Part shown: positions 342 through 9,499 of the stretch, piece after piece
Layout: each line of letters begins with the position of its first letter
How positions within the stretch are numbered: the stretch's first letter is position 1
Sequence record: SRR33789315_111
Direction: 5' to 3' (one strand)
DNA length: 39,348 nt
Notes under the pieces: generated by a model
Told to the model about the DNA's origin: nothing
Database searches by the model: none
The model's input: only the letters and a program-made list of their open reading frames with translations
Made by a program: the position numbers and the translations under genes

Positions 342-2666
342 TTAAAAATCAAGTTCATCTGGCAAGTGATTATCAACACCATCATCTTTAGGTGCAACAT
401 CACAATCTATACGTATAGATAGGTCTTTAGGTCTTTCAAAATTATCTTTTGATATACCCAATGTTTTTTCATCATAGCAACTACGCATAAACAAGGCCCA
501 TATAGGAAGTGCCATTGTTGCCCCTTGACCTTCTTGAATACTTTCAAAATGAACTGATCTTTCTTCTCCACCTACCCAAACACCCGTAACCAGATTAGGA
601 ACCATTCCCATAAACCAGCCATCACTTTGATTTTGTGTAGTTCCGGTTTTACCAGCAATAGGATTTTGAAAACCATAGGGATATCCTGTAATCACATTTG
701 TGTATAAGTGGCTTGTTTGCCAAGTATTTCTTAAACGTTGCCCAGAACCGTATTGTGTAACACCTTCCATAAGATTAACCGTTACATATGATGCTTCTTT
801 GCTTAAAACATCTCTGGTTTCAGGAACATGTTGATAGAGTACTGTACCATTTTTATCTTCAATGGTGGCCACAATTTGTGGCTCAACATGAACACCTTGA
901 TTAGCAAAAGTACTATAGGCCGAAACCATTTCAAATAAAGAAATATCTGCAGTACCTAAGGCAATTGAGGGTGCTTCTGGAATGTTTTTAGTATCTATTC
1001 CTAATCTCTTGACTAGATCTATTACGGGCTTAGGGCCTACGCGATCCATCAATCTTGCAGAAATTGTATTTATAGAACGGGCTAAAGCATCTTTTAACGT
1101 CACCATGCCACCATAGCCACCACTACTGTTTTCTGGACACCAGTCTTTTTGTATGTTGTATTTGCCTGCAGGGATACAATGTTGCACATTAGACATCGTG
1201 TCGCATGGAGAGAGTCTTAGCTGATCTATCGCCGTGGCGTATAAAAACGGTTTAAAGGTTGACCCTACTTGGCGTTTTGCGGTTTTAACATGATCGTATT
1301 TAAAATGTTTGTAATCTATCCCACCTACCCAAGCTCTTACCTCGCCTGTTTGTGGAACCATACTCAACATCCCACTTCGCAAAAAGCCCTTATAATAGCG
1401 TATTGAATCTAACGGAGTCATAATGGTATCTTTATCTCCTTGCCAGGTAAAAACACTCATCTCTCTTTTTTTACTAAAAGACTTTATAATTTCCTTATCG
1501 CTGATGCCTTTGGTTTTCATTTCTCGCCAACGATCTGAATTTTTCATCGCCCTGTTAAAAATTCCTTTTTCTTGCTCAGGCGTTATATCTCTAAAGGGTG
1601 CTGTTGTGTTCTTTTCGTTTTTTCTATCAAACTCTTTTTGCAGATTGGTCATATGAGCGGTTACCGCATCTTCTGCAAATTTTTGCATTCTAGAATCTAT
1701 CGTTGTGGTTATTACCAAACCATCACTATAAATATCAAAGTATTCCTTATTACCATCTGCATCTATGCGTTTAGGATTGTTCTTAACCCATTCTTTCATA
1801 AAAGACCGAAGATACTCTCTAAAATAAGTAGCAATCCCATCTGAGTGCCCTTGTGGAGTGTAGTTGATTTTTAAAGGGAGTTGTTGTAAACTGTCCTTTT
1901 CTGCTTCTGTAATTTTATCTGTTTCGGCCATTAGCGCCAACACTACATTTCTACGTCTAAAAGCATTTTCTTTACCTCCATCCCGATAAGGATTATATTG
2001 CCATGGGTTTTTAAGCATTCCAGCTATAACAGCAGATTCTTCAATATTTAAATCTTTGGGTTCTTTATTGAAATAAATATTTGCAGCAGATCTAATTCCA
2101 ATGGCTCTGTAAAGAAAATCTACCTTATTTAGGTACATGGCTACTATTTCCTGCTTCGTATATTGTTTTTCAAGTCTAATAGAAATTATCCATTCTTGTG
2201 CTTTTTGCAAAAGACGCTCAACGGTGTTTTTAGGAGCATCAGAGAATAAGTTTTTTGCCAACTGTTGGGTAATTGTACTCGCTCCTCCTTTAGATCCTAG
2301 AAAAGCTACCGCGCGAGCAGTACCTCTATAATCTATTCCAGAATGGTCATAAAAACGTCTGTCTTCTGTCGCTACAACAGCATCAACAAGACTCTGAGGC
2401 AGATCCTCATAATTGACTGGCGTTCTATTTTCTTTGAAAAATTTACCTAAAGTTTTACCATCAACAGAAAGAATTTCTGTTGCAAGATTTGTCTCTGGGT
2501 TTTCCAGTTCCTCAAAGGAGGGAAGTGCTCCAAAAACACCCCATCCAGCCAATAAAAAGAGAAGTGCAAGTAATGCTAAACCAGAAAAAAAGAGAATCCA
2601 AAATCTCTTTATGTATGTACTGAAACTCGAACCTCCCTTAGGAGATTCTGCCTTTTTTGTTGCCAT
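342..2666 (-). CDS. mrcA: Class A penicillin-binding protein (PBP1A)
   Basis: N-terminal TM, transglycosylase motifs EDRRFYDHSG and GASTITQQLAK, transpeptidase SxxK (GSTFKP), SxN (SIN) and KTG. Confidence 0.92.
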   Translation of the reverse strand: MATKKAESPKGGSSFSTYIKRFWILFFSGLALLALLFLLAGWGVFGALPSFEELENPETNLATEILSVDGKTLGKFFKENRTPVNYEDLPQSLVDAVVATEDRRFYDHSGIDYRGTARAVAFLGSKGGASTITQQLAKNLFSDAPKNTVERLLQKAQEWIISIRLEKQYTKQEIVAMYLNKVDFLYRAIGIRSAANIYFNKEPKDLNIEESAVIAGMLKNPWQYNPYRDGGKENAFRRRNVVLALMAETDKITEAEKDSLQQLPLKINYTPQGHSDGIATYFREYLRSFMKEWVKNNPKRIDADGNKEYFDIYSDGLVITTTIDSRMQKFAEDAVTAHMTNLQKEFDRKNEKNTTAPFRDITPEQEKGIFNRAMKNSDRWREMKTKGISDKEIIKSFSKKREMSVFTWQGDKDTIMTPLDSIRYYKGFLRSGMLSMVPQTGEVRAWVGGIDYKHFKYDHVKTAKRQVGSTFKPFLYATAIDQLRLSPCDTMSNVQHCIPAGKYNIQKDWCPENSSGGYGGMVTLKDALARSINTISARLMDRVGPKPVIDLVKRLGIDTKNIPEAPSIALGTADISLFEMVSAYSTFANQGVHVEPQIVATIEDKNGTVLYQHVPETRDVLSKEASYVTVNLMEGVTQYGSGQRLRNTWQTSHLYTNVITGYPYGFQNPIAGKTGTTQNQSDGWFMGMVPNLVTGVWVGGEERSVHFESIQEGQGATMALPIWALFMRSCYDEKTLGISKDNFERPKDLSIRIDCDVAPKDDGVDNHLPDELDF

Positions 2667-2668
2667 TT

Positions 2669-3151
2669 TTATTGTACTGCTTTCTCTATTAAAACACCCA
2701 CGTCTAAAATTCCTTTAAGATCTGCTACGGGCTCAACGCTACCATTCTGACGCATGGCTTGTTTGATTTTAAACTTGTAGTTACCCGATTCTTGAAAAGA
2801 AACGTTCTCTTTATACCACAATTTATTTTCAACCAAACCCCCTTTTCTGGTCCCTAACCAGGTGCCATCTGGATTTGCCATTTGATATTCTAACGTGTCT
2901 TTTACAACTTTCCCATTAGGAAATTGCAATTCTGATATTAAAAACAAATTACTAAATGCGTAGGTATTGTCATTTCTCAACATTATAAAAATGTTGTGTG
3001 TCGTAACGGTGTCTTTAGGTTCAAAATTTAAAACGACAAGAGTATCCTTATTCCAAATGCCATTAACACTCTTATAATTTTGATATACCTGATTTTTAGT
3101 ACAGGAAACCAGTGCGAAAAATAAGAAAATCAGGATAATAACCCTATTCAT
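2669..3151 (-). CDS. gldH: Gliding motility lipoprotein GldH
   Basis: Likely start MNRVIILIFLFFALVSC (lipobox) at 3151. LRNDNTYAFSNLFLI, DTLEYQMANPDGTWLG, KLWYKE and QAMR are GldH-like. Lies downstream of a PSP1 gene. Confidence 0.88.
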   Translation of the reverse strand: MNRVIILIFLFFALVSCTKNQVYQNYKSVNGIWNKDTLVVLNFEPKDTVTTHNIFIMLRNDNTYAFSNLFLISELQFPNGKVVKDTLEYQMANPDGTWLGTRKGGLVENKLWYKENVSFQESGNYKFKIKQAMRQNGSVEPVADLKGILDVGVLIEKAVQ

Positions 3152-4313
3152 TTTTTCTTGTGTTTTTCCGTTTATTACTGGGTTTATTTCTTCTATTGTT
3201 CTGTTTTTGTCTGCGTCCTTTTGGGGCGTCAAAACGTGTCAAACTATCTTGCCCTACAACGTTTCCAAAATTGATTTTATTTTCCTGTTTTTCTTCTACA
3301 GCAAATTCTTCCAGACTTTCTACCGAAGTTCCCTTTTTATTTAATGCTATAACTTCGTTTGCCTTTTCTGTAGTAAGCTGATGCCAGTTCATCCATTCTC
3401 CTTCATAGGCATACCAAAGATGCCCTTTGAAAATATCAATTTTTTGACATACGGCAGTCCCTTTTGATGTTTTAAGTTTAACTTCTGTTTTTGGAAAATC
3501 TTTTAAAGCATCTAGATAAGCATCTAATTCGTAGTTAAGACAACACTTTAATTTCCCACATTGACCTGCAAGTTTTTGAGGGTTTAAAGACAATTGCTGG
3601 TAACGAGCTGCACTGGTAGTAACCGTCCTAAAATCTGTAAGCCAAGTAGAACAGCACAATTCTCTTCCACAAGAACCAATACCGCCCAACCGAGCCGCTT
3701 CTTGCCTAAGACCTACTTGCTTCATTTCTATTCTCGTCTTAAAATCTTGAGCAAATTCTTTGATTAATTGTCTAAAATCTACTCTATCATCTGCGGTATA
3801 AAAGAAGGTAGCCTTAGAACCGTCACCCTGAAATTCAATATCAGAAATTTTCATTTGAAGCCCCAGCCTAATCGCGACCTGACGAGATTTAACTTTTATT
3901 GACTCTTCTTTGTCCTTTGCTTCTGTCCAGATATCTATGTCTCTTTGAGTAGCTTTTCTATATATTTTTAAAAAATCTTTATTATCTATTGGCGCTTTTT
4001 TCTTTTTCATTTGAACACGCACCAGTTCACCTGTGAGGGTTACAACGCCTATATCATGACCGCTTTTGGCTTGAACAGCAAGCACATCACCTACACAGAT
4101 TTGAAGACCTTCTACATTTTTATAAAACTCTTTCCGTCCATTTTTAAAACGTACCTCAACATAGTCAAATGGTTCTTGCCCTGCGGGAAGTTCCATATTT
4201 GCTAACCAGTCAAAAACGGTTAATTTATTACAGCCACCTGTACCACAAGTGCCATTATTTTTACATCCCCGTGGTTGACCATCTTTTGAGGAACCACAAT
4301 TTCCACACGCCAT
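3144..4313 (-). CDS. ricT: PSP1 domain Fe-S protein (RicT/YaaT family)
   Basis: GGIGSCGRELCC, LSLNPQKLAGQCGKLKCCLNYE and RVDFRQLIK motifs. Confidence 0.88.
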   Translation of the reverse strand: MACGNCGSSKDGQPRGCKNNGTCGTGGCNKLTVFDWLANMELPAGQEPFDYVEVRFKNGRKEFYKNVEGLQICVGDVLAVQAKSGHDIGVVTLTGELVRVQMKKKKAPIDNKDFLKIYRKATQRDIDIWTEAKDKEESIKVKSRQVAIRLGLQMKISDIEFQGDGSKATFFYTADDRVDFRQLIKEFAQDFKTRIEMKQVGLRQEAARLGGIGSCGRELCCSTWLTDFRTVTTSAARYQQLSLNPQKLAGQCGKLKCCLNYELDAYLDALKDFPKTEVKLKTSKGTAVCQKIDIFKGHLWYAYEGEWMNWHQLTTEKANEVIALNKKGTSVESLEEFAVEEKQENKINFGNVVGQDSLTRFDAPKGRRQKQNNRRNKPSNKRKNTRKNE

Positions 4314-4500: not shown

Positions 4501-4535
4501 ACAAAAAAAGCCAGCTAGTAGCTGGCTTTTTTTGT
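4501..4535. terminator. Intrinsic terminator (bidirectional form) downstream of trhO
   Basis: Perfect inverted repeat ACAAAAAAAGCCAGCTA-G-TAGCTGGCTTTTTTTGT abutting the trhO stop codon. Confidence 0.88.
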
Positions 4536-5584
4536 TAAATCGAACATCCCGATTGTTTTTGATACTTCAATTTTTCGGATCTGCCTTTTTTAAATATCTT
4601 GTTGCTATTGTGCGTCCCTTTTCTTAATTCTTTCTGTTCTTCAAAAGGAAGTGCGTGAACTTCTTTACATTCTTCAGTACAACAACTATTCATTGCTTCT
4701 GCACATGCTTCACACTGAATAAAAAGAAGATGACATGCTTCATTAGCGCAATTTGTATGGGTATCGCATGGTTTTCCACACTGGTGACAATTTGAGATGA
4801 CTTCTTCAGAAATACGTTCACTTCTGCGATGATCAAACACAAAATTCTTGCCTTTAAATTTATTTTCTAATTTCTGTTCCTCTACTTGACGAGCATATTC
4901 TATAATACCTCCTTCTAGTTGATAAACTTGCTTAAAACCTTTATGCTTATAATATGCACTTGCCTTTTCGCAGCGTATTCCACCGGTGCAATACATGATA
5001 AGTTTCTTGTCTTCTTTATGATTTCTTAAATCTTCTTCAATAAGATCTAAAGAGTCTCTAAAGGTATCTACATCTGGAGTAATTGCTCCTTCAAAATGAC
5101 CTATTTCGCTTTCATAATGATTACGCATATCAACCAAAACGGCATCTTCGCGAGCAATTAGTTCATTAAAGGTTTGAGCGTCGACATGAATGCCTTTATT
5201 GGTCACGTCAAAAGTGTTGTCATTTAAACCATCTGCAACTATTTTATGTCGCACTTTGACTTTAAGTTTCAAGAAAGATTTAGAATCTTGTTCTCTAGCA
5301 ATATTTAAACGAACATTCTCTAAGAAGTATATACTGTCAAGAAATTCTTTAAAGGGTTTAAATTTTTTTGCTGGAACAGAGAGTTGTCCATTAATGCCTT
5401 CCTGAGCGACATATATTCTACCTAGAACATCTAATGCATCCCAGGCGATAAAAAGGTGATTTCGGAAAAGATGGGGATTGCCAATTTTTGCATATTGATA
5501 AAAGGACAACGTGAGTCTCTCATCACCTGCCTCGTCAATAAGGGCTTCCCGCTCTTTTGCACTTAGTGTATTGTACAGTTGCAT
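4535..5584 (-). CDS. trhO: Rhodanese-related tRNA uridine(34) hydroxylase (TrhO/YceA, UPF0176)
   Basis: GRIYVAQEGING, DMRNHYESEIGHF, MYCTGGIRCEKAS, QLEGGI and FVFD motifs, plus a Cys-rich C-terminus. Confidence 0.88.
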   Translation of the reverse strand: MQLYNTLSAKEREALIDEAGDERLTLSFYQYAKIGNPHLFRNHLFIAWDALDVLGRIYVAQEGINGQLSVPAKKFKPFKEFLDSIYFLENVRLNIAREQDSKSFLKLKVKVRHKIVADGLNDNTFDVTNKGIHVDAQTFNELIAREDAVLVDMRNHYESEIGHFEGAITPDVDTFRDSLDLIEEDLRNHKEDKKLIMYCTGGIRCEKASAYYKHKGFKQVYQLEGGIIEYARQVEEQKLENKFKGKNFVFDHRRSERISEEVISNCHQCGKPCDTHTNCANEACHLLFIQCEACAEAMNSCCTEECKEVHALPFEEQKELRKGTHNSNKIFKKGRSEKLKYQKQSGCSI

Positions 5585-5618
5585 GCTATACTAATTTTAA
5601 GTTATTAAAAGCGTGGCG

Positions 5619-5626
5619 CAAAAATA
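5619..5626 (-). promoter_or_regulatory. Housekeeping Bacteroidota -7 element for trhO
   Basis: Minus-strand TATTTTTG matches TAnnTTTG, 35 nt upstream of the ATG. Confidence 0.6.
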
Positions 5627-5660
5627 CAAATTTTTAATTGTTTGAAAATAAAAGAGGTAA

Positions 5661-5865
5661 ACAAAAAAAGCCCCCGTGACTTAACGGGGGCTTTTTTTTG
5701 AACGGCTAATTCAATGTTAGATTTTTATTTTGTTTTTTAAAGTCAAACAAAAAAGCTAACCGCCGTCCAAACGTGTGCTGAAATTACTTCTAAAGACAAA
5801 TCCTCTAGAAACATTACAACACAAAATAATAGTCTTTATTCTCATAAGTCTTGTCGAATATATAG
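5661..5865 (-). ncRNA. Candidate ECF-dependent small RNA (or sORF/leader transcript), ~200 nt; 5' end approximate
   Basis: Bracketed by an ECF-like promoter (5870-5894) and a strong terminator (5662-5700). Contains a long hairpin at 5700-5768. No ORF of 60 aa or more. Confidence 0.5.
5662..5700. terminator. Strong intrinsic terminator inside a divergent intergenic region
   Basis: AAAAAAAGCCCCCGT-GACTTA-ACGGGGGCTTTTTTT, with A/T tracts on both sides. Confidence 0.85.
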
Positions 5866-5869
5866 TAAA

Positions 5870-5894
5870 GATGGATATTTAAGAAAAGGTTGCG
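5870..5894 (-). promoter_or_regulatory. ECF-type promoter copy 1
   Basis: Minus strand CGCAACCTTTTC-TTAAATATC-CATC. Shares a 12-mer plus CATC with 7035-7060. Confidence 0.6.
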
Positions 5895-6010
5895 TGCAAC
5901 AATGTTAAAATTTTGAATATAAAATAATCCCAAGAAGAGGAAGAGCGCATTGTAGTCCTAAAAAAGAAATGGTAATTTAGCGGACTTAAAAATTTTAGAG
6001 GAGACTGACT

Positions 6011-7018
6011 ATGAGTAAAGATAAAGATGCAAAACTTAAAGCCTTAAAATTAACCCTAGACAAGCTAGACAAAGCTTATGGCAAAGGGACCGTTATGAAG
6101 ATGGGAGATAATGCCATAGTCGAGGTAGAAGCAATTTCTACTGGCTCTTTAGGTTTAGATTTAGCCTTAGGTGTGGGAGGATACCCTAAAGGAAGAGTAG
6201 TAGAAATTTATGGTCCAGAGTCGTCTGGTAAAACAACACTTACTTTACATGCCATAGCTCAATCACAAAAAGCAGGAGGCATTGCTGCGTTTATTGATGC
6301 AGAACATGCTTTTGATAGGTTCTATGCAGAAAAATTAGGGGTAGATATTGAAAATCTAATCATTTCACAACCTGATAATGGTGAGCAGGCATTAGAGATT
6401 ACAGATAACCTGATACGCTCAGGCGCTATTGATATTATTGTAATAGATTCTGTAGCGGCGCTAACCCCAAAAAGTGAGATTGAAGGAGAAATGGGAGATT
6501 CTAAAATGGGGCTCCATGCGCGTTTAATGTCCCAAGCATTACGTAAACTCACAGCTTCAATAAGCAAAACCAATTGTACTGTAATCTTCATTAATCAGTT
6601 ACGAGAAAAAATAGGAGTGATGTTTGGAAATCCAGAGACTACAACTGGCGGAAACGCACTAAAATTTTATGCCTCAGTACGTCTTGATATACGTCGCTCA
6701 ACTCAAATTAAAGACAGTAATGGCGCTGTTATGGGAAATAAAACCCGTGTTAAAGTAGTTAAAAACAAAGTTGCTCCTCCATTTAGACAAGCTGAGTTTG
6801 ACATTATGTATGGTGAGGGTATTTCTAAAGTGGGTGAAATAATCGACATAGGTGTAGATTATGAAATCATTAAGAAGAGTGGATCTTGGTTTAGTTATGA
6901 TGATACCAAACTAGGGCAAGGAAGGGATGCAGTAAAAAGCTTATTGAAAGATAACCCTGACCTAATGGATGAATTAGAAGAAAAAATTAAGGCTGCGATT
7001 AAAATTGCTACTGCCTAA
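6011..7018 (+). CDS. recA: Recombinase A
   Basis: Walker [10 protein letters not shown], plus DSVAAL, FINQLR and [17 protein letters not shown]. Confidence 0.99.
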
Positions 7019-7034
7019 TATTATTAATATCTAA

Positions 7035-7060
7035 CGCAACCTTTTCAAACTATTAGCATC
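7035..7060 (+). promoter_or_regulatory. ECF-type promoter copy 2 (probable autoregulatory promoter of the ECF operon)
   Basis: CGCAACCTTTTC-AAACTATTAG-CATC has an AAC-type -35 and lies 28 nt before the first gene of the ECF operon. Confidence 0.65.
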
Positions 7061-7088
7061 CTATATATAAATATAGCCTGTTAATAGT

Positions 7089-7514
7089 TTGAAAAAGTTG
7101 TTTTTTTTTATCGCTGGTCTAGTCTTGATCACGGGATGTTCGTCTGAGGATGATAGTGTCATTTTTAACTATGACGTTGTCCCTATAGTAAATGTCAATT
7201 TACCTGACACACTCGTATTTGGCGCAGAATACAACTTTCCTATTCAATATTACCGTCCTACAAATTGTTATGTTTTTGAGGGTTTTGATTATTCCAAAGA
7301 AGACAGCACAAGGTATGTCGCCGTAATTAATAGAGTCTATGATACAGGAAATTGTAATACCTTATCTGAAGATAATGATGAAAGTTTTATAGAAGAAGAT
7401 TTTGCTTTTAAGGTTCTTTATGATTACACCTATACATTTAAATTTTTTCAAGGGATGAATTCTAGCGAAGAAGCCCAGTATCTTGTAATTAAAGTTCCCG
7501 TAAAGCGCAGTTAA
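7089..7514 (+). CDS. Lipoprotein of unknown function
   Basis: MKKLFFFIAGLVLITGC lipobox followed by acidic SSEDD. Two further Cys. TTG start. Confidence 0.8.
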   Translation: MKKLFFFIAGLVLITGCSSEDDSVIFNYDVVPIVNVNLPDTLVFGAEYNFPIQYYRPTNCYVFEGFDYSKEDSTRYVAVINRVYDTGNCNTLSEDNDESFIEEDFAFKVLYDYTYTFKFFQGMNSSEEAQYLVIKVPVKRS

Positions 7515-7529
7515 TAAAAAACCATAGCA

Positions 7530-8078
7530 TTGAGTTTAGATCAACTCATAAAAGACTGTAAACAAAAAAAGCCTAAAGCACAAGAGACGTTGTATAGGAG
7601 GTATGGTAGCGTTCTTTACTCTATATCGTTGAAGTATTCTAGGAATAAAGCTGAAGCTGAAGACAATTTGCAAGATGCATTTATTACCATATTAGAAAAA
7701 GTTGGCCAGTATAAAAAGCAAGGCTCTTTTGAAGGGTGGCTTAAACGAATAGTGATTAATACAGCATTGCAGCGTTATAGAAAACGAGATGTTTTTGAAA
7801 TTGTAAACCCTGGTGATATTGCTGCTGTCGAGATAGAAATAGATAATGATGATGTCTCTTTGGATTTTTTGCTCCAAATAGTTCAAAATCTTCCAGACAG
7901 ATACCGTTTGGTTTTCAACCTATATGCATTAGATGGTTTTTCGCATCGCGAAATCGCAAACATGCTATCCATTTCAGAAGGCACATCTAAGTCAAATTTA
8001 GCTAGAGCCAGAATGATCTTAAAAGAAAAAATAGAAAAAAAAATTAATATCAACAACATACAATCCTCAATGTCGTGA
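7530..8078 (+). CDS. ECF RNA polymerase sigma-70 factor
   Basis: AEDNLQDAF, SFEGWLKRIVIN (region 2), LPDRYRLVFNL and GFSHREIANMLSISEGTSKSNLARAR (region 4). Confidence 0.95.
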   Translation: MSLDQLIKDCKQKKPKAQETLYRRYGSVLYSISLKYSRNKAEAEDNLQDAFITILEKVGQYKKQGSFEGWLKRIVINTALQRYRKRDVFEIVNPGDIAAVEIEIDNDDVSLDFLLQIVQNLPDRYRLVFNLYALDGFSHREIANMLSISEGTSKSNLARARMILKEKIEKKININNIQSSMS

Positions 8079-9499
8079 AGGATAAGAAGAACATAGACCG
8101 ACTTTTTCAAGAGAAATTTAAAGATTTTGAGGTGCATCCTGATGAAAAAGTTTGGCAAAACATACTAGAGCGTAAAGAAGAAAAAAAGTTACGTATCATA
8201 CCTCTCTGGATAAAATTATCTGGGGCAGCAGCACTTTTACTACTATTGTTTACAATAAGTAATAACTTATTTCTGAAACCAAATAATAATCAAAATCCTA
8301 TAGTAGAAACAACTTCAGAAAAAGCAATAGAATTGAATAATAATAATACCAATTTTGAAGAAGAAACAAAACCAAGAACAGCCTCTACTACAGATCAAAC
8401 TACTCCGTTAAACAAAGCTACAAGTATTAAGGACAATACGAATAATCAGAACCTTGAAAGTACCGTTGCTGCTACTCCAATTAAAGAAAGAAAAGCAGGC
8501 TCAAGAGCTGAAAATTCAAATATCAATCAGCAGGCAGTAAGCAATACAAATAATAACACAAATACTATAGCCGAGCATAAAGCTATAAATGATAAAACAG
8601 AAGGGCAAGATATAGCCCCAATTATCACACCGCCTTCAGAGACATCAATTAATTCTACTGAAGTTTCTGAAAAAAATACCAAAAAAGAAATTAGCGAGAA
8701 GGAAGAAAAACCATCTATACTTGAGGCAATAGTTGAAAATACAGAAGAAAAATCACAGCTCAAAAAAGAAGAAGCTCCTAAGAAATGGGGTGTTACTCCT
8801 ATGGTAGCTCCCGTTTATTATAATAGTTTTTCAGGCTCTGGTATTGACCCTTTATTTGACGATAATGAAAAACACGGAAAACTCAATTTAAGTTATGGTG
8901 TACAAATAAGCTATGCCATTAGCCCTAAATTAACGATACGATCTGGTATTAATAAAGTGGATTTAAACTACATCACAAACGATATTGCTTTTAATCCGGC
9001 TATAAATGCAAAAAGTATTCGCAGTATTAATTACAAAGACGGATTGGCGGGTATAGAAATAAACGATGCACAAGCAGCTATCCGTTCTGAGGCCTTATTA
9101 TCGACAGAAAATCAAGAGGTAAATGAAACCACTGTTTCTATAGCCAGTGTGAATCAAAAACTGGGTTACCTGGAAATCCCCATAGAAATGCAGTATGCCC
9201 TATTAGATAAAAAATTAGGAATTCAATTTATTGGAGGTATTAGTACTTTATTTCTTGATGCCAATTCTATATCACTTATTGAAGGCGATATGGTAACAGA
9301 ATTAGGCTCGTCAAACAGTCTAAACAGCACTAGTTTGTCAACGAATTTAGGCTTTGGTTTTGATTATAAAATTACCAAAACCATAACTTTTGATCTTGAA
9401 CCTATATTCAAGTATCAACTTAATGCATATAACAAATCAGTACAAGATTTTAAACCATACTATCTCGGTGTTTACACCGGTTTGCGTTTAAATTTCTAG
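8075..9499 (+). CDS. Putative anti-sigma factor with C-terminal outer-membrane beta-barrel
   Basis: Short N-terminal IDRLFQEKF...VWQNI domain, one TM, an N/T/E/K low-complexity linker, then amphipathic strands ending YLGVYTGLRLNF. GTGA overlap with the sigma gene. Confidence 0.75.
   Translation: MKDKKNIDRLFQEKFKDFEVHPDEKVWQNILERKEEKKLRIIPLWIKLSGAAALLLLLFTISNNLFLKPNNNQNPIVETTSEKAIELNNNNTNFEEETKPRTASTTDQTTPLNKATSIKDNTNNQNLESTVAATPIKERKAGSRAENSNINQQAVSNTNNNTNTIAEHKAINDKTEGQDIAPIITPPSETSINSTEVSEKNTKKEISEKEEKPSILEAIVENTEEKSQLKKEEAPKKWGVTPMVAPVYYNSFSGSGIDPLFDDNEKHGKLNLSYGVQISYAISPKLTIRSGINKVDLNYITNDIAFNPAINAKSIRSINYKDGLAGIEINDAQAAIRSEALLSTENQEVNETTVSIASVNQKLGYLEIPIEMQYALLDKKLGIQFIGGISTLFLDANSISLIEGDMVTELGSSNSLNSTSLSTNLGFGFDYKITKTITFDLEPIFKYQLNAYNKSVQDFKPYYLGVYTGLRLNF

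Follow-up and report, generated by a model that had tools for sequence, protein, structure and literature searches.

MicA, RybB, and MicL are sigmaE-dependent non-coding small RNAs (sRNAs) of enterobacteria, which carry a conserved seed and require Hfq. Besides these regulators, SgrS/SgrT, RNAIII/delta-haemolysin, SR1/SR1P, and AzuCR are dual-function RNAs, MgrB is a stress-induced small membrane protein that feeds back on the sensor PhoQ, and TnaC and SecM are regulatory leader or arrest peptides. To our knowledge, Bacteroidota have been reported to lack Hfq, and the literature searched contained no description of a small RNA or small protein of this phylum that depends on an extracytoplasmic function (ECF) sigma factor. 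In the present study, we describe a small unit on the minus strand of the trhO-recA spacer (5585-6010) in a 39,348-nt stretch of DNA from sequence record SRR33789315_111, which is hereafter called the window and the source organism of which is a member of Flavobacteriaceae. We consider it reasonably probable that this unit specifies an ECF-induced, autonomous, structured transcript with a small open reading frame (ORF), namely, a peptide messenger RNA (mRNA) that possibly also has a role of its own as an RNA. A preliminary description of the locus had instead proposed a purely regulatory sRNA of the MicA and RybB kind; based on the findings below, a small-protein gene, which is perhaps also a regulatory RNA, is more likely than a purely non-coding RNA. 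The unit is not described in the accessible parts of a transcriptome study on F. psychrophilum (PMC9723704) or a study on the ECF factors of B. thetaiotaomicron (PMC7366714), supplements aside.

Similar to MicA, RybB, and MicL, the unit combines a short predicted transcript with its own terminator and a promoter of the envelope-stress ECF type. It adjoins the sigma operon and differs from them in that they are non-coding and carry a conserved seed, whereas the unit has a conserved ORF of 29-30 codons, no common seed, and no Rfam match. FoxI and FoxJ of Fusobacterium, as presented in the accessible part of their description (PMC11005410), are likewise short transcripts of an ECF regulon and, unlike the unit, are non-coding. 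The combination of a small structured stress RNA with a peptide of less than 50 aa is shared with the dual-function RNAs. Signs of selection are seen in both the structure and the ORF of the unit, and some lineages kept the RNA but lost the ORF; in contrast to RNAs of the SgrS/SgrT type, a function of the unit at the RNA level is putative. The likeness to MgrB lies in a peptide of approximately 30 aa under envelope signaling that begins with a basic N-terminus, contains a short hydrophobic stretch, and ends in a conserved tail with a Cys; however, there is no sequence similarity, and the hydrophobic stretch (approximately 10-15 residues with an Asn inside) is short for a membrane helix. As in TnaC and SecM, conservation is highest in the C-terminal residues and in the location of the stop codon, which lies within an RNA structure, but the transcript of the unit has no downstream gene; it ends at a strong terminator, and a convergent gene may follow. 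By analogy, the nearest concept for the unit appears to be either a dual-function RNA or, as with MgrB, a small protein induced by stress.

The elements of the unit, together with the two promoters to which it is compared, are as follows (positions in the window).

5883-5895, minus strand: -35 region ACGCAACCTTTTC (core GCAACC at 5893-5888), an exact 13-nt match to 7034-7046 on the plus strand
5869-5873, minus strand: -10 element CATCT, located 14 nt after GCAACC (sequence reading)
5860-5864, minus strand: predicted transcription start, approximately 6-8 nt past the -10 element (promoter geometry only)
5756-5845, minus strand: ORF of 29 codons plus stop, MRIK...STRLDGG, ending GAC GGC GGT TAG, with the stop in the 5' arm of hairpin 2
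5774-5823, minus strand: hairpin 1, within the ORF (RNAfold)
5698-5770, minus strand: hairpin 2, long and AU-rich, with the Gly-Gly-stop codons GGCGGTTAG in its 5' arm and GAATTAGCCGTTC in its 3' arm (RNAfold)
5663-5699, minus strand: intrinsic terminator A8-GCCCCCGT-TAAGTC-ACGGGGGC-T7, with a GC core at 5670-5691 and a stem of 13-14 bp (RNAfold)
5626-5619, minus strand: -7 box of trhO, TATTTTTG, of the TAnnTTTG type, downstream of the terminator and 35 nt before the trhO start
7034-7061, plus strand: promoter of the lipoprotein/ECF sigma/anti-sigma operon, consisting of ACGCAACCTTTTC, a 15-nt spacer after GCAACC, and CATCC

The promoter links the unit to the operon on the other side of recA. 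The motif GCAACCTTTT has just two exact matches in the window, one in the unit and the other 44 nt before the lipoprotein ORF, and the identity between them extends to 13 nt; with one mismatch allowed, seven matches were obtained against 5.7 expected, which is no enrichment, and so the longer exact match alone is the informative signal. The preliminary description had reported a motif with an N9 gap to CATC that is nearly identical to the motif before the ECF operon; the gap to CATC is N9 in the unit but N10 at the operon promoter. The general ECF consensus comprises a -35 element with an AAC core and a -10 element of the CGTC type, which are approximately 16 nt apart, and ECF autoregulation is usually recognized by a promoter motif in front of the operon of the sigma factor itself. 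The promoter of the unit has an AAC-core -35 element and a -10 element of the CGTC type, and its copy stands before the sigma operon. Since the motif at the operon promoter is a sign of autoregulation, the second copy suggests that the small unit belongs to the regulon of the same, neighboring ECF sigma factor. A CGT -10 box is mentioned for flavobacterial ECF promoters in the accessible part of PMC9723704.

Related loci were taken from one genome-contig scan with RecA, 80 of the 604 matches of which formed, with the window, a set of 81 sequences; the RecA protein of the window is at most 90-91% identical to its best relatives in these 80 loci, which include Gillisia, Winogradskyella, and Algibacter. 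With the spacers side by side, the arrangement ACGCAACC-N15-C(A/G)TCT was seen directed away from recA, followed by 100-270 nt and then by a terminator. The same -35 element is at the same place in 11 related loci, and its -10 partners at a spacer of 15 are CATCT, CGTCT, AATCT, and CTTCT. A promoter matrix built from 21 sites selected by regular expression was scanned over the 81 sequences (1.42 Mb counting both strands) and gave 32 sites of at least 15 bits, 21 of which are the training set and 11 lie outside it; all are in Flavobacteriaceae and flank recA, and none occurs anywhere else in the set. These sites lie upstream of all 16 operons (16/16), in the 12 divergent units, and, in four cases, downstream of recA (L013 and L014). 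The window itself has two sites of at least 14 bits, the unit with 23.5 bits and the operon promoter with 27.3 bits.

The lipoprotein/sigma/anti-sigma operon directly follows recA in 15 of the 80 loci, with sigma factors that are 54-66% identical to that of the window. The unit, directed away from recA, was present in 12 of the 16 operon-bearing sequences (the window, L001, L002, L003, L005, L006, L007, L008, L011, L012, L015, and L024) and in none of the other 65. Regarding the four operon-bearing sequences counted as being without it, the unit was not found in L004 or L018 or within the 534 nt available in L034, and its presence cannot be judged in L021, in which only 104 nt lie upstream. 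trhO is directly divergent from recA in 12 of the 80 loci, but the unit appears to track the operon, not trhO, because L016 and L017 show the trhO-recA arrangement with neither operon nor unit, and in L002, which carries both operon and unit, a convergent gene occupies the place of trhO. This conservation became visible only once the syntenic spacers were compared side by side; a nucleotide BLAST search of the spacer against the 80 loci returned almost nothing, with a best match of 48 nt at 81% (L015). A repeated or mobile element was rejected, as the unit has no repeat in the window, and a self-BLAST search of the unit against the window gave only the 13-nt promoter match and short low-complexity matches.

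The terminator is at the equivalent place in 12 of the 12 units and, being flanked by A and T runs, is two-way in form. A consensus terminator scan listed two terminator-like sites, 5663-5699 not among them, and the latter was revealed by folding; the scan likely missed it because the paired A/T runs lengthen the stem and leave no free T tail. Downstream of it, the box of trhO is of the TAnnTTTG type given as the -7 consensus of Bacteroidota in the accessible parts of PMC7366714 and PMC9723704, and a similar box, as read by eye, precedes trhO in 10 related unit-bearing trhO-recA spacers. A search of the whole window against Rfam at gathering thresholds gave no match. Below the thresholds, 78 matches were found in 5560-6030, the best of which was Thr_leader with 36.4 bits against a cut-off of 55 bits; by coordinates, most of them include the terminator hairpin, which yields many sub-threshold matches to leaders and sRNAs, and the highest-scoring of them fall on the plus strand.

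All five observations of the preliminary description were confirmed by these results, namely, the divergence of trhO (4535-5584, minus) and recA (6011-7018, plus), the strong terminator between them with its stem of 13-14 bp, the motif shared with the operon promoter, the long hairpin before it (predicted at 5770-5698, with a second hairpin also predicted at 5823-5774), and the -7 element of trhO's own at 5626-5619. The comparison among loci also supports a discrete, separately terminated minus-strand unit of approximately 200 nt that is independent of trhO and has a promoter of the same type as the neighboring ECF operon. Two checks that the description had proposed were performed: neither an Rfam family at gathering thresholds nor a repeated element in the window was found, and both hairpins covary among orthologous units (seven sequences). 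The analogy to MicA and RybB was not supported in the form proposed, given the 29-codon ORF, a peptide family made up of its positional orthologues, the failure to find a seed common to the 12 units, and complementarity to two mRNAs that did not exceed that of shuffled RNA.

Regarding the ORF, L002, L006, L008, and L015 each contain an ORF of exactly 30 codons that ends with GAT GGN GGN TAR and is placed as the 29-codon ORF of the window. The latter starts 23 nt after CATCT, and the start positions in the window and L015 are 22-23 nt past the -10 element. The pattern GAYGGNGGNTARC has five matches in the 81 sequences, which are confined to the window and these four loci. Substitutions between the orthologous ORFs favor third codon positions: the changes at codon positions 1, 2, and 3 number 6, 7, and 15 between L006 and L008 and 1, 4, and 5 between L008 and L002.

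These ORFs belong to a family of peptides. When a profile of five ORFs was searched against 1.84 billion representatives, 17 matches were obtained, 15 of which are proteins of 28-54 aa that match end to end (E values of 1.8e-10 to 3.5e-4) and all terminate in ...C-K-[ATV]-D-G-G; the remaining two were long repeat proteins and were set aside. A second, word-indexed search yielded 65 clusters (E values of 1.2e-14 to 7e-6). The C-terminus is DGG in all of them (65/65) and CKADGG in 57, the length is exactly 30 aa in 39, the Cys at the conserved position is found in 64, and an Asn three residues before it in 63, with the consensus M-K-F-F-K-K...L-G-V-S-V...N-S-x-C-K-A-D-G-G. Longer family proteins (22) contain the same internal Met behind unrelated N-terminal extensions, which look like artefacts of gene calling. 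In four extended database proteins, the reading frame runs through both promoter elements (as TQPF...CIY or ATF...LHL, according to the frame), so that in further genomes, too, the promoter is within approximately 30 nt of the start. The named sources are Ichthyenterobacterium, Winogradskyella, Psychroserpens, and, by locus tag, a Bizionia-like strain, and all entries are hypothetical proteins. No Pfam or NCBIfam family was found for eight of the peptides, the ESM Atlas contained the L006 peptide letter for letter with no usable look-alike and no model, and no literature match was found for the motifs CKADGG, SCKADGG, and NCKADGG.

The family product is probably a small, membrane-associated peptide that would act in the envelope response through a functionally critical C-terminal tail, and our best guess is an N-in topology with a short exposed tail. 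In a lipobox, the Cys is preceded by G, A, or S, i.e., a small residue, at -1 and by a hydrophobic one at -3. A lipoprotein with CKADGG as the mature product is unlikely: the residue at -1 is N in 37 of the 65 clusters, S in 25, and D, H, and G in one each, and that at -3 is N in 63, whereas this position is occupied by S, A, or G in every operon lipoprotein (14 orthologues and that of the window). A type I toxin, which would pair a hydrophobic peptide that spans the membrane with an antisense RNA, is also unlikely, as the hydrophobic stretch comprises only approximately 10-15 residues with polar interruptions; the terminator and matrix scans of the window, which were not an exhaustive antisense search, showed neither a promoter nor a terminator for an antisense RNA.

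The window copy has the architecture of the family (28-30 aa, a start approximately 20-30 nt past the -10 element or behind a longer leader, and a DGG-stop in the 5' arm of a hairpin). Features of the family that recur in its peptide, MRIKTIILCCNVSRGFVFRSNFSTRLDGG with the tail NFSTRLDGG, are M-R at the N-terminus, a stretch K-T-I-I-L, an Asn at -9, and the terminal DGG. This peptide has an Arg at -5, where the family has Lys, and its two Cys are at positions 9-10; it lacks the signature M-[KR]-[FY]-[FL]...LGVS...N-x-x-C-K-[ATV]-D-G-G. Since the architecture is present and the signature is not, we filed it as a positional orthologue and not as a sequence member.

In addition to the ORF, the transcript is predicted to be highly structured. 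For 5655-5870, a folding energy of -61.9 kcal/mol (z = -6.48; 0/200 shuffles as good) was obtained on the minus strand, and the weaker folding of the plus strand (-45.8 kcal/mol, z = -3.43) fits G-U pairs that work only on the minus-strand RNA. RNAalifold applied to an alignment of the seven long units (the window, L002, L005, L006, L008, L015, and L024) predicted the hairpin within the ORF and the base of the long hairpin. Paired cells amount to 86.7%, in comparison with 21-47% when partners were slid by 1-3 columns, changes on both sides are seen at eight pairs, and the covariation score of 0.331, which was reached by 0/500 shuffles, exceeds the value of at most 0.097 for slid partners; these advantages over the controls are inflated because the structure was derived from the same alignment, which comprises only seven sequences. 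In the main helix of hairpin 1, five of the nine pairs show changes on both sides, and an equivalent of this hairpin is kept with different sequences in L002, L006, L008, L015, and L024; its construction from different sequences in L008, L006, L015, L024, and the window argues for selection on the RNA. The base helix of hairpin 2 (11 pairs) is 88% paired across the seven sequences, with G-U pairs that fit the minus strand only, and its non-coding 3' arm complements the Gly-Gly-stop codons with G-U pairs. The best-conserved DNA among the window, L015 (Gillisia), and L005 (Psychroflexus) comprises the -35 region, GG..GGTTAGCT, and ACGAATTAGCC(G)TT followed by an A-run, i.e., the promoter and the base of hairpin 2 rather than the peptide, and GAATTAGCC in the 3' arm of hairpin 2 is invariant in all three.

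We propose the following mechanism. Upon release of the sigma factor from a membrane anti-sigma factor, RNA polymerase would start via GCAACC-N14-CATCT at approximately 5862 on the minus strand, and a transcript of approximately 200 nt would end at the intrinsic terminator (5699-5663), with trhO being transcribed separately from its own promoter. This transcript would be the positional orthologue of a small gene that lies beside recA and the operon in marine Flavobacteriaceae, where it would serve as a highly structured mRNA for a peptide of 28-30 aa, the final Gly-Gly and stop codons of which are predicted to be buried in a hairpin. The window copy keeps the promoter, the short 5' leader, the length and frame of the ORF, the DGG-stop, both hairpins, and the terminator, while its peptide sequence has drifted. 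The hairpins may set the stability and translation of the mRNA, and the RNA may have an additional role of its own. What the sequences show is the anatomy of the unit and its conservation, the link to the operon through the promoter, and that there is a peptide family; transcription, dependence on the ECF factor, translation, and the action of the peptide are inferences.

A number of observations weigh against this reading of the unit as a peptide mRNA, to which the limits of the covariation analysis given above must be added. The window peptide scores -0.6 bits against the profile of the 65-member family, and shuffles reach 6.7 bits, in contrast to 17.7 bits with a shuffle maximum of 4.4 for the L015 peptide; the near-invariant family Cys is replaced by Thr in the window peptide; and, according to an estimate from composition, a frame of 29 codons is open by chance in approximately 10% of cases in DNA this AT-rich. 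The spacer between GCAACC and CATCT is 14 in the window unit and 15 at the operon promoter and in 11 of the 11 related units. Moreover, seven of the 12 units lack an intact ORF: in L005, there is an ORF of 14 aa in a different frame, in L024, the start codon is missing and the frame is shifted, and the units of L001, L003, L007, L011, and L012 are short (100-152 nt) and contain nothing longer than mini-ORFs. The promoters of these units score 20.8-41.5 bits against 20.5-41.7 bits for the ORF-bearing units, and their terminators are kept, which speaks for transcription, or the RNA as such, being under selection. Hairpin 1 is also maintained by compensatory changes even where the peptides differ.

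An alternative is a pure base-pairing sRNA of the ECF regulon, as the preliminary description proposed; its hairpins or single-stranded stretches would act on target mRNAs, and the ORF would in this genome be incidental or a relic. The strong promoters and terminators of the seven ORF-less units, the poor fit of the window peptide to the family profile, the covariation of both hairpins, and the retention of the base of hairpin 2 in L005, which has no ORF and in which GAATTAGCC is invariant in the 3' arm, are all consistent with this explanation, as are an ECF-type promoter in L013 and L014 followed by approximately 110 nt without an ORF of more than 7 aa and a 5' motif, RGGRAAwwwTTGCTATGAAAAAG, which is kept in nine of the 12 units (missing in the window, L005, and L015) and doubled in L012. 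However, this motif is, in several database genomes, simply the start-codon region of the peptide ORF (...KEKVA-M, ...REKIA-M, ...WETFA-M), and, in units with an insertion between the motif and the ORF, it may be a relic start site. The terminator is the sole RNA element common to all 12 units, no conserved seed common to the 12 was found, there is no Rfam match, and the window ORF retains the orthologous start position, length, and DGG-stop. RNAduplex tests against the start regions of the lipoprotein and recA gave no duplex better than those of shuffled RNA (z of -1.5 to +1.2 in 23 tests with 20 shuffles each, a crude measure that admits long loops). We therefore regard a purely non-coding sRNA as rather unlikely. 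A combination of both roles, i.e., a dual-function RNA that acts as a riboregulator and, in most lineages, encodes a 30-aa peptide with an invariant N-x-x-C-K-A-D-G-G tail acting at the envelope, for example, in feedback on the barrel-bearing anti-sigma factor, is a speculative and unlikely extension, and its riboregulator part would explain why ORF-less units keep the promoter, 5' motif, and terminator.

Two further explanations attribute less to the window copy itself. If the unit was inherited and is non-functional in this genome, the spacer of 14 instead of 15, the loss of the peptide signature, the absence of the 5' motif, and the frequency of ORF loss in relatives (7/12 units) would all be signs of decay; a decaying remnant is nevertheless improbable, since the promoter hexamers, both hairpins, the open 29-codon frame with its DGG-stop, and a perfect terminator are intact, the folding z is -6.48, and L013 likewise has a spacer of 14 at one site (5104). 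A leader or attenuator of trhO, in which the small ORF and terminator control read-through into this gene, was suggested by the position of the terminator 5' of trhO on the same strand, by the conservation of the ORF, which is highest at the C-terminus with the stop in a hairpin, as in some regulatory leader peptides, and by the sub-threshold Rfam leader matches (best, Thr_leader, 36.4 against 55 bits). It was rejected as highly improbable: trhO has its own -7 box past the terminator here and in related spacers, and a convergent gene takes its place after the unit in L002. In addition, the trhO-recA arrangement of L016 and L017 contains no unit, inspection by eye showed no alternative pairing of hairpin 2 with the arms of the terminator, and the Rfam matches lie mostly on the terminator hairpin, the top ones being on the plus strand.

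Further observations concern the unit and its relatives. The 5' motif, as TTGCTATGA(A/G)AAAG, is duplicated in L012 (3797-3908, minus), with L011 and L001 grouped in the same observation, and the 5' end of the ORF is partially duplicated in some family members (P0058 and P0015), which suggests that small duplications and deletions have occurred repeatedly in the unit. The divergent ECF -35 element is 60-84 nt from the recA start in 10 of the 12 units, 117 nt in the window, and 149 nt in L003. A conserved TAnnTTTAGC-like box, which resembles a -7 element of recA (window, 5963-5970), lies a few tens of nt from it; the ECF and recA promoters are back to back (5888-5970 in the window, with the equivalent region in the 11 related units), and mutual interference between them is conceivable. 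In Flavobacterium L013 and L014, which have no operon after recA, two tandem ECF-type promoters on the plus strand precede two units.

L014 5100-5260 and L013 5104-5260, plus strand: first tandem unit, consisting of a promoter, approximately 110 nt, a small hairpin, and a terminator
L014 5280-5570 and L013 5286-5570, plus strand: second tandem unit, with a 34-aa basic ORF, MKEKIEVLY...IIHR, followed by a terminator

The first tandem unit has no ORF of more than 7 aa and is a candidate non-coding sRNA, while the basic ORF of the second is nearly identical between L013 and L014.

The genes around the spacer are arranged as follows.

342-2666, minus strand: class A penicillin-binding protein gene
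2669-3232, minus strand: gldH
3144-4313, minus strand: PSP1-domain gene
4535-5584, minus strand: trhO-like rhodanese gene (Rhodanese_C, UPF0176_N, and Rhodanese domains)
6011-7018, plus strand: recA, divergent from trhO
7089-7514, plus strand: lipoprotein-like ORF of 141 aa, without a Pfam family
7530-8078, plus strand: ECF sigma factor gene
8075-9499, plus strand: presumed anti-sigma factor gene (474 aa), with weak C-terminal matches to outer-membrane protein (OMP) beta-barrels under the Pfam cut-offs

The position of the gene and the architecture of the 474-aa protein, an N-terminus followed by a hydrophobic stretch, suggest that it is the anti-sigma factor. In the window and its orthologues (15 loci), it begins with a conserved N-terminal region of approximately 50 aa, after which come a hydrophobic stretch, a long linker of low complexity, and, at the C-terminus, an OMP beta-barrel domain, with matches to PF13505 and PF13568 that are both just below the cut-off; it would be unusual for one protein to combine an inner-membrane anchor with an outer-membrane barrel. 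The first gene of the operon encodes a lipoprotein of 134-149 aa across the orthologues, without a Pfam or NCBIfam family, and in most of them acidic residues directly follow the lipobox Cys (CSSEDD, CSIDDD, CSLGDD), which we take to resemble the surface-export signal of Bacteroidota lipoproteins.

ECF sigma regulons in Bacteroidota are almost uncharted, and this locus represents a concrete, conserved, and testable case, which combines a sigma operon that bears a clear motif of autoregulation, a second promoter of the same type for a tiny gene, and a new peptide family with a fixed C-terminus. If it does act as a dual-function RNA, the unit would be the first ECF-sigma-dependent regulatory RNA described in this phylum. 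The lineages with and without the ORF constitute a natural experiment that separates the functions of the RNA from those of the peptide. The unit could serve as a reporter of ECF sigma activity and is an entry point to regulation by small proteins and RNAs in Bacteroidota.

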